Sequence record: OP870144.1
From: Escherichia phage vB_Eco_F25
Direction: 5' to 3' (one strand)
Length of the DNA stretch: 64,000 nucleotides
The notes under the pieces are model-generated. The model was not told the origin of the DNA. It saw only the letters and a list, made by a program, of their open reading frames with translations, and ran no database searches. This document shows, piece by piece, positions 1-38,296 of the stretch. A program made the translations under genes and the position numbers. The first letter of the stretch is position 1. Each line of letters begins with the position of its first letter.

Positions 1-617
<617 letters not shown>

Positions 618-2275: not shown

Positions 2276-2852
2276 ATTCTCTACATTCCTTAACAAATTT
2301 TTCTAATAATAAATCGCTTTCAAAATTAGGATTTTCTACGAATTTATCAAAAAGATCATCAACAATAGTAAAGATATTCTTTTTACTAAGAATACGCTTA
2401 TTTTCATATTTTGTTTCAGAGTCAACTATAAGAGTAAAGAAATATTTCTTTCCCTGAAATTTTACTGTAGTATCAATATAAAATAAATTTGACTTTTGTA
2501 AATTACGTCTAAACCCCGCGTCACTTAAACTATAAATGCCAAGATAGTCATAATCGTCGTTTAAATAACAAACTGTCCATTCAGGAGAAATGAAATCAGT
2601 AAATTCAACATCAAAATCACATGTCAATGAATGAATTGATTCAATACTGTTAATAAGTATTCCAGGACGTATTAAAGACTTTTTACCTCTATAAAATCTT
2701 CCAGAAAGACTTTCGTCAGTTTCATATGAAGACCCCCAATAGTAATTACGTCCTTCTGCCATACGTTTAAGAACATTTAGTAATTGGTCTGGAACATCAA
2801 CATGTCTTTGGAACTCTTCAAACATTGAATTGAAATCATTTTGCATTCTCAT
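2244..2852 (-). CDS. Hypothetical protein (e.x accessory gene)
   Basis: 202-aa ORF with GGAG-type SD; no motif recognised. Confidence 0.6.
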   Translation of the reverse strand: MRMQNDFNSMFEEFQRHVDVPDQLLNVLKRMAEGRNYYWGSSYETDESLSGRFYRGKKSLIRPGILINSIESIHSLTCDFDVEFTDFISPEWTVCYLNDDYDYLGIYSLSDAGFRRNLQKSNLFYIDTTVKFQGKKYFFTLIVDSETKYENKRILSKKNIFTIVDDLFDKFVENPNFESDLLLEKFVKECREYVKAITIPSE

Positions 2853-4091: not shown

Positions 4092-4655
4092 TTATTTATC
4101 TAGTTTAGTTATTATAGCTTCTGCGGCAGCTTTTAGCTTAGATGCGGTGTTAATACGATTTTTAATTTCAGTATACGCATCGCCAAGAACATCAAGGCTA
4201 TCAGAATAAACGCTTACACTATTGCGTTCGCTATTTGAAATAGAACCTTTAGTTTTACGATCAAAATCGATGTACACGTCTTGAAGATCACGGGCTGCCT
4301 TCTTTGCATCATCCAATGCATCAAGAGCTTTATTCAAAGCATTAACGTATTTTTTAGTGTCGAACATATTCTTAGAAATTTTAACAGGCGCACGTTCAGG
4401 AGTAGCTAAGGCAGATTTAGGAACCTGAGCGCCAGATGCCAGTTTCTTAGAAATTTTGAAAAATGCTTTATTGAATTTATTTTCTTGACTCATCGTAAAA
4501 GAACTATTATCAATGTTATACATTTCAATAGCTTTAGCTTTCCACTTAAGAAAATCGCCACGGTCTTTTGGGTCCAATTGGAAGAATACTTTAGTAAGTT
4601 CTGCTTCAGATGGTAATTTTGCTGCTTCGGTTAAAAATTCGGCATAGGTTTTCAT
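4092..4655 (-). CDS. Internal (head-packaged) protein with capsid-targeting sequence
   Basis: 187 aa; N-terminus MKTYAEFLTE|AAK matches T4 IP CTS with gp21 (L/I)xE cleavage motif; AAGGA SD. Confidence 0.7.
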   Translation of the reverse strand: MKTYAEFLTEAAKLPSEAELTKVFFQLDPKDRGDFLKWKAKAIEMYNIDNSSFTMSQENKFNKAFFKISKKLASGAQVPKSALATPERAPVKISKNMFDTKKYVNALNKALDALDDAKKAARDLQDVYIDFDRKTKGSISNSERNSVSVYSDSLDVLGDAYTEIKNRINTASKLKAAAEAIITKLDK

Positions 4656-4780: not shown

Positions 4781-5254
4781 TTATTTGATTTGTTTAGCAG
4801 ACCAAATGCGGTCTTTGATGATTTTTTGGAGATCTTCAACATACTCTAGGTCATGAGCATGTGGATTATCTTTGAAACTATAGGCACGGGCTAATTTTTG
4901 GCCTTCGGTTTTAATTACTAAAAGCTCTTTAAGGATAGCTTCATATTTAGCGATAATTCCTTTAACAATATTTTTTTCTTGTGCAGCTTTAGGATCTGCT
5001 TTAGGAGCAGGTTTACCGGAAGGTTTTTCGAAAGCCGCACCAGTAGCAACCAGACTTTTCCAGGCGGTGGTAACATAGTTACCCACAAAGCCTTCAGCTC
5101 TCATATCGTCGTAGAACTTGTACCGGGATTCGTCAGAAGCATCTTTATAAGAATATTTACCAGATTTAATAGCAGCAGTTGCTACAGCGCGAACATCTGA
5201 AGCGGATGCTTCATTTAACACCGCTTCATTTAAAAATTGAGCATATGATTTCAT
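4781..5254 (-). CDS. Internal (head-packaged) protein with capsid-targeting sequence
   Basis: 157 aa; N-terminus MKSYAQFLNE|AVL; AGGAAA SD; late promoter immediately upstream. Confidence 0.7.
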   Translation of the reverse strand: MKSYAQFLNEAVLNEASASDVRAVATAAIKSGKYSYKDASDESRYKFYDDMRAEGFVGNYVTTAWKSLVATGAAFEKPSGKPAPKADPKAAQEKNIVKGIIAKYEAILKELLVIKTEGQKLARAYSFKDNPHAHDLEYVEDLQKIIKDRIWSAKQIK

Positions 5255-5644: not shown

Positions 5645-5719
5645 TGGTATCCCGCCCTGGGATCGAACCAGGACCGCAAACTTAGAAGGATCGTATGCTA
5701 TCCATTACACCAGCGGGAC
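5645..5719 (-). tRNA. tRNA-Arg (anticodon TCT), CCA encoded
   Basis: Acceptor GTCCCGC/GCGGGAT, anticodon loop CTTCTAA, T-loop TTCGATC, 3' ACCA. Confidence 0.8.
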
Positions 5720-6341
5720 GTAATTTATTTAAAAGACAAGACAAATCGGAAATCTCATCTTTTTCTAAAACTACCAAATTTTCTAAAGCTTTCCATTTAC
5801 AAAGATCTCTATCTCTTTTATATCCTTTGACTTCTATATAAAAATCATAAGTGGGTAAATAAAAATCAGGAAAATAGAGATGTTCTGAACCTTCCCATTC
5901 GTAAGGAATTGGCTTTATTTTATTAGTATATTTGATATTGTGTTCTTTTAAAAACTTAGCAACTTTTAATTCCCAGGTCCCTTTAAATTTAAACCCGTCA
6001 AACTCATATGTTTTTACTCGACCAGAAACATTAGAAGCAGAATATGAATCAGGATTATCAAGAACAGCTTGCCGCATTCTTTTAGAATGTGCTTCTTTGC
6101 GTTCATTAGACCATACATATCCAGTATTGGCTTTTCTAAGTTTTTCTCTAGTTTTATCAGAGACTTTTATTTCTTTACCTAGTTCTTTGGCTTTGGTAAA
6201 TTGATTACTACCTTTAAGACCATAACGAGGGTTATTAGGGCCGCTCATATCTAATCTATTTGGGTTAGATTTGCACCGTTTTTCATGCTGCTTTAGTGAA
6301 TTTAAATTTTTACATTCTTTAGAACAATATTGACAAAGCAT
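5682..6341 (-). CDS. Free-standing putative homing endonuclease (Zn finger + NUMOD3-like repeats + PD-(D/E)XK-like motif)
   Basis: N-terminal CQYCSKEC...HEKRC; central SDKTREKLRKA / NERKEAHSKRMRQA; C-terminal FPDFYLP...YIEVKGY; second ATG has GGAG SD; last 12 codons and the stop lie inside tRNA-Arg. Confidence 0.65.
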   Translation of the reverse strand: MLCQYCSKECKNLNSLKQHEKRCKSNPNRLDMSGPNNPRYGLKGSNQFTKAKELGKEIKVSDKTREKLRKANTGYVWSNERKEAHSKRMRQAVLDNPDSYSASNVSGRVKTYEFDGFKFKGTWELKVAKFLKEHNIKYTNKIKPIPYEWEGSEHLYFPDFYLPTYDFYIEVKGYKRDRDLCKWKALENLVVLEKDEISDLSCLLNKLRPAGVMDSIRSF

Positions 6342-6410
6342 AATTTTCTCCATGAATTTTATATAGATATTTATTCATGGAGAAGTTGACTGCTCTACCT
6401 AATCAAAATA

Positions 6411-7767: not shown

Positions 7768-7953
7768 TTATTCACCTTTAGAAATTTTATCCATAACAAT
7801 AGCGATTAAACCAATTAAAAATGCTACTACAAGTGAAAAAACATTTTCTGCTGTAGTCAATAATCCACATATAAATCCAACAAACATTGAAAAACTAAAA
7901 GCGGAAGCAGAAATTGCAATAGCAGCATTTCGAATTAATTCACAGCGTTTCAT
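7768..7953 (-). CDS. Small two-helix membrane protein
   Basis: Track ORF starts at TTG; ATG (MKRCELIRN...) with GGAG SD; two hydrophobic helices. Confidence 0.55.
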   Translation of the reverse strand: MKRCELIRNAAIAISASAFSFSMFVGFICGLLTTAENVFSLVVAFLIGLIAIVMDKISKGE

Positions 7954-7998
7954 TTTATTCTCCAATCACTCATTTGTTTTGATAGGGTAATAGTATCA
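7951..7998 (-). repeat. 48-bp promoter/5'-UTR cassette, copy A
   Basis: Exact 48-mer cattttattctccaatcactcatttgttttgatagggtaatagtatca, identical to 8670..8717; includes SD and start codon. Confidence 0.6.
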
Positions 7999-8019
7999 CA
8001 CTACTACCCAGAAGTAAAC
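7990..8019 (-). promoter_or_regulatory. T4-type early promoter (GTTTAC-N17-ATACTAT)
   Basis: Minus-strand GTTTAC + 17 nt + ATACTAT upstream of 7768..7953. Confidence 0.4.
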
Positions 8020-8030
8020 TGTTTTATAAA

Positions 8031-8339
8031 CTATTTTATTCCGCGTGATGCAATTGTGTTCTGCCGTTTAACACCAGTTTGTTTAAAGTCATGATTGTCG
8101 ATTTGATCAGTACGAGCAACTCCGAATGATGATTTGATCTTAGCTTTAGATCCTTTAGTTATAGAAATAAACATCTCGGAAGCCCCTTTCTTAAAGTCCG
8201 AGGCGATTACTTCAACGCCGTTCTTAGCAAGTGACTTCAGAATTGCCTCTGCATACTCATCGTCAAGACTCGTCTGAGTATTAATAACGAATGTCTTTGG
8301 CGCAGCCGCTTCATTGATAAATTCTTTAAATGTTTTCAT
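8031..8339 (-). CDS. Internal-protein-like small protein with capsid-targeting N-terminus
   Basis: 102 aa; MKTFKEFINE|AAAP; at the position T4 uses for ipI (between tRNAs and 57B). Confidence 0.65.
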   Translation of the reverse strand: MKTFKEFINEAAAPKTFVINTQTSLDDEYAEAILKSLAKNGVEVIASDFKKGASEMFISITKGSKAKIKSSFGVARTDQIDNHDFKQTGVKRQNTIASRGIK

Positions 8340-8369
8340 TTTATTTTCCTAATTAATTTTGATGAGATA

Positions 8370-8399
8370 ATAGTACCACAACCCTATTTAAAAGTAAAC
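8370..8399 (-). promoter_or_regulatory. T4-type early promoter (GTTTAC-N17-GTACTAT)
   Basis: Minus-strand GTTTAC + 17 nt + GTACTAT upstream of 8031..8339. Confidence 0.4.
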
Positions 8400-8672
8400 T
8401 CATTTTAAATAAATTGCGTATTTTTTATAACCCGCTGACTCATGACGAAGACCCTTATCATTAGCAAAACGCTCAATGTTATTAATTTGATTCTGGTCAA
8501 GTTCAGAGATGTCAAACACGAAAAAGTTACGTTTGTTACCAACTGTTACATAGTCAGTTAAATCAATATCATATAGGTAATTGATGTCAGCAATCAAAGT
8601 CTTGACAGCTTTGCTAATTTTTACTTTTTCGTTAAAAGCAGCTTCATTGATAAATTCTTTAAATGTTTTCAT
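8400..8672 (-). CDS. Internal-protein-like small protein with capsid-targeting N-terminus
   Basis: Track ORF starts at TTG; ATG gives MKTFKEFINE|AAF; GGAG SD. Confidence 0.65.
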   Translation of the reverse strand: MKTFKEFINEAAFNEKVKISKAVKTLIADINYLYDIDLTDYVTVGNKRNFFVFDISELDQNQINNIERFANDKGLRHESAGYKKYAIYLK

Positions 8673-8717
8673 TTTATTCTCCAATCACTCATTTGTTTTG
8701 ATAGGGTAATAGTATCA
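8670..8717 (-). repeat. 48-bp promoter/5'-UTR cassette, copy B
   Basis: Exact copy of 7951..7998. Confidence 0.6.
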
Positions 8718-8739
8718 TAACTAAAACCCCGTGTAAATA
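8710..8739 (-). promoter_or_regulatory. T4-type early promoter (ATTTAC-N17-ATACTAT)
   Basis: Minus-strand ATTTAC + 17 nt + ATACTAT upstream of 8400..8672. Confidence 0.35.
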
Positions 8740-8750
8740 ACTTTGTGAAA

Positions 8751-9447
<697 letters not shown>

Positions 9448-9448
<1 letters not shown>

Positions 9449-10173
9449 TATAGTACCTTTAGTGTATTTTTAATTTTAGAAAAAAGTTCTTCAAGAGAAC
9501 CATCGTTTGTAATTACTAAATCACCATCACGAATTGGCAATCCAGCTTCTGTAATATGAGTATCATTGGATTTTTGACCAGGACGAACTACATGAATTAC
9601 TGTAGCACCCATCGCCCTAGCCGCATCCATTTCATGATCTTGACGAGTATCAGGAACGATATAATAATCATAACCTGAGTTAAATTTATCAAGATAATCT
9701 AAAGCAAATAATTTTACCCAATACATGCGGTCGAAGTTATTAACAATCAAATCCGTACCTAGGGCTTGCATCAGACGACGGACTGACCATTGATCTTCAA
9801 TATTATTTATAACGTCAATAATCTTGTTAAATGCTACGGAATTAACTGATTCTTGTCCTTCGTCATCAAAAACAAACACGCCTTTAATTGGGCTTTTACT
9901 ATTAAGATAGCAAAATGCTTGTTCCATAATCGTGATTACTTCTGATTTAGTCAGATTTAAATTAGTCTCACGATCATAGTCAATTCCTTCAAACTCTTTG
10001 CGAGTTAAGCAAGGATAGTCAGTGTTTTCTGCAAATACACCCCATGCATAAGCCAATGCATCTTTAATAGGACCAGCAAGTTGATATTTAACTGCAGAAT
10101 AATTATTCATGATAAAATCTGCAGTAGTATCTTTTCCACTGCGCTTTACACCACTTAAAAAGATTAGTTTCAT
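9448..10173 (-). CDS. 1: Deoxynucleoside monophosphate kinase gp1
   Basis: 241 aa; P-loop GVKRSGKDT; T4 gp1 length and order. Confidence 0.95.
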
Positions 10174-37233: not shown

Positions 37234-37658
37234 TGATTCTAATCCCTGAAACTCATGAATTAGTTCTCGAGAATGTCGAAGCACTTATTCCTGAAGCACA
37301 GGGTCGCTTTGACGAGTTGTCTTCTGCTTTAAATAAAGACGATATAAATAAAATTATCGAGAATATGCTTGATGATGAAACTGATTTAGCGGTTGCATTA
37401 GCTTCTATTAATGAAAATATGCCGTTAAATGAATTCATCGTTAAACATGTTTCTGCCCGTGGTGAAATTACTCGCACTAAAGATCGCAAAACCCGCGAAC
37501 GTAATGCATTTCAAACTACCGGGTTGTCTAAAGCAAAACGTAGACAAATTGCTCGTAAAGCTACCAAAACGAAGATTGCCAATCCAGCAGGTCAATCTCG
37601 TGCTCAGCGTAAGCGTAAAAAAGCTCTTAAACGCCGTAAAGCATTAGGATTAAGCTAA
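37233..37658 (+). CDS. 68: Prohead core protein gp68
   Basis: 141 aa, basic C-terminus; T4 gp68 length and order. Confidence 0.85.
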
Positions 37659-38296
37659 TGAATGAACCCCAATTACTAATTGAAACTTGGGGTCAACCTG
37701 GCGAAATTATTGATGGCGTACCAATGCTTGAATCTCATGATGGAAAAGACTTAGGTTTAAAACCTGGTTTATACATCGAAGGAATATTTATGCAAGCGGA
37801 AGTCGTCAATAGAAATAAACGTCTTTATCCAAAACGCATATTAGAAAAAGCGGTAAAAGACTATATTAATGAGCAAGTTTTAACTAAACAAGCTCTCGGA
37901 GAATTAAATCATCCTCCACGCGCTAATGTTGACCCGATGCAAGCCGCTATCATTATAGAAGATATGTGGTGGAAAGGAAATGACGTATACGGACGAGCTC
38001 GTGTTATTGAAGGTGACCATGGTCCTGGAGATAAATTAGCAGCTAATATTCGTGCCGGATGGATTCCAGGAGTTTCTTCTCGTGGATTAGGTTCATTGAC
38101 TGACACAAATAAAGGTTATCGTATCGTAAACGAAGGATTCAAATTAACTGTAGGTGTTGATGCAGTATGGGGTCCAAGTGCTCCAGATGCATGGGTAACT
38201 CCTAAGGAAATTACAGAATCACAGACGGCGGAAGCCGATACAAGTGCCGATGACGCCTATATGGCTCTCGCAGAGGCCATGAAAAAAGCGTTATAA
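37658..38296 (+). CDS. 21: Prohead core protease gp21
   Basis: 212 aa, T4 gp21 length and order. Confidence 0.9.
   Translation: MNEPQLLIETWGQPGEIIDGVPMLESHDGKDLGLKPGLYIEGIFMQAEVVNRNKRLYPKRILEKAVKDYINEQVLTKQALGELNHPPRANVDPMQAAIIIEDMWWKGNDVYGRARVIEGDHGPGDKLAANIRAGWIPGVSSRGLGSLTDTNKGYRIVNEGFKLTVGVDAVWGPSAPDAWVTPKEITESQTAEADTSADDAYMALAEAMKKAL

Follow-up and report, generated by a model that had tools for sequence, protein, structure and literature searches.

Internal head protein genes ip7 and ip9 at the ipI locus of Escherichia phage vB_Eco_F25, candidates for injected anti-defence functions

Results

In order to characterize the ipI locus of Escherichia phage vB_Eco_F25, we analysed a stretch of 64,000 nucleotides from its sequence record (OP870144.1), referred to here as the window. 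By megablast the window falls in Tequatrovirus, and a 1.1-kb region of it shares 94-96% identity with many T4-like phages. Two short genes on the minus strand lie between trna.4 and 57B, giving the order trna.4-ip7-ip9-57B where T4 has trna.4-ipI-57B (Table 1). A first-pass annotation had placed the pair at the position of ipI, and this slot is indeed the same as in T4. Beyond 57B, on the same strand and at higher coordinates, follow 57A, gene 1 (dNMP kinase), gene 3 and gene 2, and at lower coordinates, which are downstream in transcription, lie trna.3, trna.2 and the tRNA cluster. The gene order around the locus matches that of T4. The window also encodes the gp21 prohead protease, with the genes for gp67, gp68, the gp22 scaffold and gp23 as neighbours. 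An ipI, ipII, ipIII or Ip5 body elsewhere in the window was considered and rejected, the sole trace being an open reading frame with a CTS that is cut off by the window's left edge, and no copy of Bas37_0260 was found in the window. The truncated reading frame at the left edge is weakly Ip5-like.

Table 1. Positions of genes, N-terminal signals, promoter cassettes and repeats in the window
Feature	Position	Strand	Description
trna.4	7768-7953	minus	gene for a 61-aa membrane protein
51-nt perfect direct repeat, left copy	7948-7998		exact identity checked
trna.4 cassette, third copy	7954-8030	minus	GTTTAC 8014-8019, TACTAT 7990-7995
ip7	8031-8339	minus	internal head protein Ip7, 102 aa; open reading frame, identity to RB32 Ip7, PHROG match
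Ip7 CTS	8310-8339	minus	MKTFKEFINE; gp21 cleavage predicted after I8-N9-E10
ip7 early-promoter/RBS cassette	8340-8399	minus	GTTTAC 8394-8399, TACTAT 8370-8375, GGAAAA 8344-8349
ip9	8400-8672	minus	internal head protein Ip9, 90 aa from ATG; open reading frame, identity to RB32/RB15 Ip9, PHROG match
Ip9 CTS	8643-8672	minus	MKTFKEFINE; identical to Ip7 CTS
51-nt perfect direct repeat, right copy	8667-8717		exact identity checked
ip9 early-promoter/RBS cassette	8673-8750	minus	TTTACA 8732-8737, N17, TACTAT 8709-8714 with TGn, GGAG 8679-8682
57B	8751-9206	minus	151 aa; Pfam Acb1, E 2.6e-60
gp21 prohead protease	37658-38296	plus	Peptidase_S77, E 1.5e-111

Judged by sequence identity, the two open reading frames are the known genes ip7 and ip9 of the polymorphic internal-protein set of T-even phages (Tequatrovirus). 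Ip7 is 98% identical to RB32 Ip7, and Ip9 is 95.6% identical to RB32 Ip9 and 93% identical to RB15 Ip9 (UniProt Q38376); across RB32, RB15 and K3, the Ip7-Ip9 proteins share 93-98% identity with those of the window as well as their lengths of 102 and 90 aa. Each protein matches, over the whole profile length, a PHROGs family annotated as 'internal head protein' (phrog_2667 for Ip7, E 5.2e-41; phrog_7673 for Ip9, E 1e-54). The Ip7/Ip9 family of RB15, K3 and RB32 is credited to Repoila, Tetart, Bouet & Krisch (1994, EMBO J 13:4181). In the RB32 record (NC_008515), the orthologues are annotated as Ip7 (309 nt) and Ip9 (273 nt), 'internal head protein', with the remark that they are 'similar to RB15 and K3 Ip7/Ip9', and the genes are likewise annotated in RB15, VR5/VR7 and many further phages. 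Repoila et al. are also credited with the count of 'at least 10' Ips among T4 relatives (PMC12373910). The two genes had at first been taken for unrecognised, merely internal-protein-like genes; the RB32 and RB15 identities show that they are known genes that already have names.

The description of the locus as a pair of genes was accurate, but the end at 8684 belongs to a version of the ip9 reading frame that is extended to a TTG. The ATG of ip9 lies at 8670-8672 and is preceded on the minus strand by GGAG. BLASTP aligns Ip7 with Ip9 over residues 1-12 only, and the bodies are therefore unrelated, which upholds the earlier description of two proteins that share an MKTFKEFINEA start and then diverge. 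Using bodies stripped of the CTS as tblastn queries, we found relatives of Ip7 in 283 phage records and relatives of Ip9 in 193. Both proteins are conserved at full length in hundreds of phages, with identities as low as about 45%.

The N-terminal signal is the same 10-residue CTS in both proteins. Ip7 and Ip9 have F4, F7, I8 and E10 followed by Ala, and both have the CTS form MKT(Y/F)xEF(I/L)xE, with aromatic or hydrophobic residues at positions 4 and 7. The (L/I)xE motif that had been noticed at residues 8-10 is I8-N9-E10; it is the only such site in Ip7, and Ip9 has a second one at I55-S56-E57. In a six-frame motif scan of the 64 kb, the N-terminal signature occurred five times, always on the minus strand and each time at the ATG of a long open reading frame (one of the five runs past the window's left end), and the motif is therefore no chance match. 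Cleavage at the predicted site would leave a mature Ip7 of 92 aa (9.9 kDa, pI 9.65) and a mature Ip9 of 80 aa (9.3 kDa, pI 8.17), values that are close in size and pI to T4 IPI*, IPII* and IPIII*. T4 IPII and IPIII start with MKTYQEFIAE↓A (the arrow marks cleavage) and thus share with Ip7 and Ip9 the 10-residue form MKT(Y/F)xEFIxE↓A. T4 IPI has the same MKTFKEF start, but its propeptide is 19 residues long and ends in ITE↓A, compared with 10 residues in Ip7 and Ip9. In IPIII, mutagenesis established that residues 1-10 are enough for packaging, residues 4 and 7 being needed in targeting and residues 8 and 10 in processing (PMC9026906). A search of the accessible literature returned no virion proteomics or cleavage data on Ip7 or Ip9.

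The CTS is strictly kept in every T4-like homologue of Ip7 and Ip9, including the distant P0031 and P0036, although its exact letters differ for Ip9. In RB32, RB15 and G4498 the Ip9 CTS reads MKTYQEFI(S/A)E (MKTYQEFISE in RB32), unlike the Ip7-type MKTFKEFINE of the window. Because the Ip9 CTS differs in those three phages and is identical to that of Ip7 in the window, the comparison suggests that local recombination has homogenised the Ip9 signal of vB_Eco_F25 to that of its neighbour.

The intergenic regions ahead of trna.4, ip7 and ip9 carry three paralogous cassettes. The first-pass annotation had assigned a GTTTAC-N17 early promoter to each ip gene; each does have an early-type cassette of its own, but of the two only ip7 carries GTTTAC. 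The distance from GTTTAC to TACTAT at ip7 is 18 nt, or 17 in the sigma-70 register TTTACT-N17-TACTAT. Upstream of ip9 an A precedes TTTACA, so that the -35 element reads ATTTACA and not GTTTAC, and a promoter scan returned TTTACA-17-TACTAT with an extended -10. The GTTTAC that sits downstream of ip7 serves trna.4. When nine cassettes were aligned (trna.4, ip7 and ip9 of the window; trna.4 and ipI of T4; trna.4, Ip7, Ip9 and Ip5 of RB32), the TTTAC and TACTATTAC boxes were invariant, and the TG ahead of the -10 box and the SD were conserved as well. The window cassettes agree with TTTACW-N17-TAYWAT, the consensus of PST/T4 PeSL promoters (PMC4122927). Like the PeSL cassettes (Arbiol et al. 2010; Comeau et al. 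2014), they continue with an SD and an ATG and are repeated between small variable genes, flanking units that differ among relatives. The stem-loop of PeSL lies upstream of the promoter (PMC4122927), whereas those predicted here coincide in part with the spacer and the -10 box; this holds for four of five cassettes (z -1.5 to -3.6), including that of trna.4 (z = -2.3), and the ip7 cassette has no hairpin (z +1.4).

An early promoter in front of a head-protein gene had been implied to be odd. However, T4 ipI is preceded by the same cassette, and a time-resolved omics study of T4 places ipI, ipII and ipIII in the class 'early-RNA_late-Protein' (PMC9697503 supplement). Therefore, an early promoter on an ip gene is normal here, not anomalous. 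The earlier observation that the genes lack a late promoter is correct: the late box TATAAATA is absent from the minus strand between 7316 and 9803. A dedicated late promoter for ip7 or ip9 was accordingly rejected, as there is no TATAAATA between the genes. The box does occur within gene 1, at 9804-9811. Since this TATAAATA is conserved in T4, RB32 and G4498 and the stretch from there to the ip genes has no predicted terminator, late read-through from gene 1 into ip7 and ip9 is plausible.

The pair is bracketed by the two copies of a perfect 51-nt direct repeat, 719 nt apart. A further direct repeat of 46 nt (8304-8349 versus 8637-8682, 96% identical) takes in the RBS and the CTS at each gene. 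RB32 shares the order trna.4-Ip7-Ip9-...-57B and the flanking direct repeat, its record describing Ip7+Ip9 as 'flanked by 43 bp direct repeat', but it has an Ip5 gene between Ip9 and 57B that is missing from the window. The five loci that we examined show five architectures, namely ipI in T4, Ip7-Ip9-Ip5 in RB32, 74-aa Ip-Ip7-Ip9 in G4498, Bas37_0260-Ip5 in Bas37 and Ip7-Ip9 in the window. Such variation agrees with published accounts of T4-type phages, in which repeated promoter cassettes recombine with one another (PMC2839356; PMC4122927).

Searches for domains and folds gave little. The Pfam candidates for Ip7 and Ip9 (Mur_ligase_M, AbiJ_NTD3 and AHD) were all sub-threshold, with E values of 0.02-0.14, and were rejected as noise. 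Profile searches over PDB sequences gave no match for either protein, and in comparisons of the two proteins with IPI, IPII and IPIII the CTS alone aligned. The AF2 model of Ip7 (pLDDT 67) has a predicted beta-alpha-beta-beta-alpha core (residues 14-72) and a basic C-terminal tail, rich in Lys and Arg, that is disordered (residues 82-102); Ip9 is modelled as a compact alpha/beta domain (pLDDT 82.6). In Foldseek searches of the PDB, the Ip7 core gave weak ACT/ferredoxin-like matches (E about 0.01, TM 0.49) and the best E for Ip9 was 0.013; nothing in the PDB reached E <= 1e-3 for either model, the solved IPI* structure included. In BFVD, Ip9 matched one entry, an unnamed viral protein of 535 aa (E 5e-7); all other hits were weak. 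As modelled, the predicted folds lend no support to a function of Ip7 or Ip9. The characterised inhibitors are themselves mutually unrelated, so the dissimilarity of Ip7 and Ip9 says little on function.

The body of Ip9, which corresponds to positions 19-90 of the phrog_7673 profile, is also found without a CTS in other phages. A 72-aa stand-alone homologue with 49% identity lies among small open reading frames beside a helicase gene in the Guernseyvirinae siphovirus M01, and an unannotated one with 43% identity occurs in the Seuratvirus ECP2304; such stand-alone CTS-less homologues are 66-73 aa long. In Kuttervirus, the Ip9 body is embedded as a domain in a large protein of about 860-960 aa. 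CTS-less Ip9 bodies are thereby present in phages lacking T4-type heads. A HMMER search with the Ip9 body against 1.84 billion representatives returned 8 clusters only, and all origins that could be traced were phages; none of the 8 clusters could be tied to a bacterial origin in this library, which holds no source information.

Discussion

That Ip7 and Ip9 disarm host restriction systems is suspected, as the standing hypothesis of the field for all polymorphic Ips, where an anti-restriction role is the published working hypothesis (PMC3012670; PMC12373910). The anti-restriction function put forward in the first-pass annotation restates this hypothesis and is plausible on comparative grounds. 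In T4, the proteins Ip1, Ip2 and Ip3 inhibit a different GmrSD type IV enzyme each and do not cross-protect (PMC12373910). T4 IPI, an inhibitor of GmrSD from E. coli CT596, shares with Ip7 and Ip9 the slot, the promoter/RBS cassette, the MKTFKEF start and the small basic mature protein, but its body has no sequence similarity or fold match to theirs. IPII (Ip2) and IPIII (Ip3) inhibit GmrSD-ECOR21 and GmrSD-ECOR17, respectively; they are injected anti-type-IV effectors made from early RNA as late proteins, and they differ from Ip7 and Ip9 in having their locus beside gene e and unrelated bodies.

A second precedent comes from the same locus. Bas37_0260, a 77-aa protein with a CTS encoded beside trna.4 at the ipI locus of phage KarlGJung (MZ501089), gives phage Bas37 resistance to McrBC (HIDEN-SEQ preprint 10.1101/2025.11.20.689424). 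We considered whether it could be Ip7 or Ip9 and rejected this, as a sequence check found it to be neither; its similarity to Ip7 is marginal (30% over 50 residues, a stretch that includes the CTS). Together, the precedents of Ip1-3 and Bas37_0260 strengthen an anti-restriction reading of Ip7 and Ip9, which remains a plausible argument by analogy. Against it stands the one published direct test, in which ip4-10, including ip7 and ip9, were assayed with a panel of active GmrSD variants: no reproducible inhibition was seen, and an apparent signal of ip7 with CLS_011 failed to repeat (PMC12373910).

We consider it likely that ip7 and ip9 encode packaged and injected T-even internal proteins in the ipI slot, most probably with an anti-defence role. 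Packaging, cleavage, injection and anti-defence activity are what we infer by analogy with the T4 proteins. Each protein consists of the 10-residue CTS and a small basic body unrelated to that of the other. Each gene would be transcribed from its own T4-type early cassette, to which late read-through from TATAAATA in gene 1 may add, and the proteins would accumulate late. The CTS would dock them in the prohead's scaffolding core of gp22, gp67 and gp68, and gp21 would cleave after I-N-E10. The mature proteins of about 9-10 kDa would then remain in the head and be injected with the DNA in the next infection, most likely to neutralise a host defence against incoming modified DNA. A candidate for such a defence is a type IV, modification-dependent nuclease. 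The 51-nt repeats of the promoter/RBS module around the pair could serve as the substrate for recombinational gain, loss and swapping among relatives.

Ip7 and Ip9 might instead be packaged and injected mainly as basic, DNA-associated contents of the head, serving in charge neutralisation, DNA condensation or ejection, or core assembly in the manner of IPIII, rather than inhibiting a defence. The predicted mature proteins are as basic as T4 IPI*, IPII* and IPIII*, and the modelled C-terminal tail of Ip7 would fit such a role, as would the contacts of internal-protein lysines with DNA phosphates in T4 heads (PMC3012670), the slower head assembly without IPIII (PMC9026906) and the negative GmrSD assays of ip7 and ip9. 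However, this explanation leaves the extreme presence/absence polymorphism and the cassette swapping unaccounted for, all the locus occupants tested to date (Ip1, Ip2, Ip3 and Bas37_0260) have a specific defence target, and on laboratory strains T4 shows normal growth even with all three IPs missing (PMC9026906). We therefore regard a mainly structural role as unlikely. Very unlikely, in our assessment, is that one or both proteins, Ip9 in particular, act mainly as newly made early proteins of the cytoplasm, in host take-over or anti-defence, with capsid delivery secondary or absent. An early promoter of its own for each gene and the CTS-less Ip9 bodies in the Guernseyvirinae siphovirus, in Seuratvirus and inside the Kuttervirus protein would suit such a role, but the CTS is strictly conserved across the T4-like homologues, and T4 ip RNA is early too, yet its proteins are late and packaged (PMC9026906; PMC9697503). 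That the two are non-functional remnants or chance open reading frames, as the want of an above-threshold Pfam match might suggest, is effectively refuted by their full-length conservation in hundreds of phages; the RBS, promoter and CTS are conserved too, and the model of the Ip9 fold is confident.

The distribution of the Ip9 body is a point against the reading of Ip9 as a packaged and injected protein. As CTS-less homologues occur in phages without T4-type heads, the body can act unpackaged. From these comparisons, Ip9 looks like a portable domain to which T-even phages have given a delivery tag, and such portability speaks for a role in the cytoplasm of the host. A stronger proposal, which we think rather unlikely, is that the Ip9 body of about 70 residues is a portable effector domain used beyond T4-like phages, the T-even phages having added the CTS so as to deliver it pre-made. 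The DNA of Seuratvirus contains 7-deazaguanine and that of Kuttervirus hypermodified thymidine, and T-even DNA contains glucosyl-hmC. If the proposal were true, these phages could have as their common target some broad defence, modification-dependent or acting on DNA entry, and not a GmrSD specific for glucosyl-hmC; this would explain the negative GmrSD screen. The CTS-less relatives of Ip9 could steer the selection of defence systems as candidate targets.

The window provides one more example of an arms-race locus that is already well described. The practical value of the finding lies in how common Ip7 and Ip9 are and in the two precedents from the same locus, which point to type IV restriction. 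Beyond the literature and existing annotations, the window adds the perfect 51-nt repeats, the apparently homogenised CTS and the CTS-less relatives of the Ip9 body in unrelated phages. As a separate observation, a 77-aa protein of phage OLB35 is a chimera of Ip7 and Ip9.

Additional CTS-bearing genes

Besides ip7 and ip9, the window holds two further genes whose products start with a capsid targeting sequence (CTS). These form a tandem pair flanked by e.x genes on one side and by the tRNA cluster on the other. The encoded proteins, of 187 and 157 aa, are both basic (pI 9.2-9.5) and match phrog_2280, a family that carries the label 'unknown function' and not that of an internal protein. We consider it likely that they are additional internal proteins, encoded at a third locus. 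A fifth CTS ORF is cut by the left edge of the window; it starts at 96, directly following the stop codon of gene e (lysozyme, 93-581), and shares 44% identity over 32 aa with Ip5 of the T4-like phage RB32. The tRNA region itself contains an ORF at a position that varies among related phages, being occupied by a homing endonuclease adjoining tRNA-Leu in Bas37 and by extra tRNAs in G4498.

Features in the window and CTS-less relatives of the Ip9 body in other phages
Feature	Source	Position	Strand	Remarks
Fifth CTS ORF, cut by left edge	window	1-96	-	T4 ipIII position
CTS-bearing gene, 187 aa	window	4092-4655	-	MKTYAEFLTEA...; phrog_2280 match
CTS-bearing gene, 157 aa	window	4781-5254	-	MKSYAQFLNEA...; phrog_2280 match
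ORF in tRNA region, 223 aa	window	5682-6353	-	position of T4 segB (homing endonuclease)
57B, anti-CBASS nuclease Acb1	window	8751-9206	-	PF23474, E 2.6e-60
TATAAATA late-promoter box	window	9804-9811	-	inside gene 1
Stand-alone small protein	phage M01, OR061069	2504-2722		Ip9-body homologue
Stand-alone small protein	ECP2304, OR880647	1992-2216		Ip9-body homologue, unannotated
Domain of large protein	Kuttervirus allotria_82	about 2480-2731		Ip9-body homologue, phrog_3867

Ip7 and Ip9 sequences without a CTS

Homologues of the Ip9 body, that is, Ip9 without its CTS, were found in three non-T4-like phages (M01, ECP2304, and Kuttervirus allotria_82), in each case lacking the CTS. The 77-aa 'ip7 protein' of Escherichia phage OLB35 (P0017), likewise without a CTS, is chimeric: the N-terminal portion matches Ip7 from about residue 29 to 72, and the C-terminal portion matches residues 46-90 of Ip9. 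Apparently, this protein arose through fusion of adjacent ip7 and ip9 genes by deletion.

Neighboring genes and promoter-cassette hairpins

Gene 57B encodes the anti-CBASS nuclease Acb1, and the ip cassette therefore adjoins another counter-defence gene. The TATAAATA box of gene 1 is conserved in position in T4, RB32, and G4498, and late read-through from it could extend into 57A, 57B, ip9, and ip7.

The trna.4 and ip9 cassettes of the window (7954-8030 and 8673-8750), and the T4 locus at 316-391 and 680-752, contain hairpins that overlap both the spacer and the -10 box of the promoter; no hairpin of this spacer/-10 type was found in the ip7 cassette (8340-8399). The T4 ipI hairpin has the arms GATGAGGTA...TACCTCATC (z = -3.6). 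As candidate roles, these hairpins may serve as a recombination site, act in the processing of transcripts, or terminate read-through from upstream. Their arms differ from cassette to cassette, yet stay complementary.
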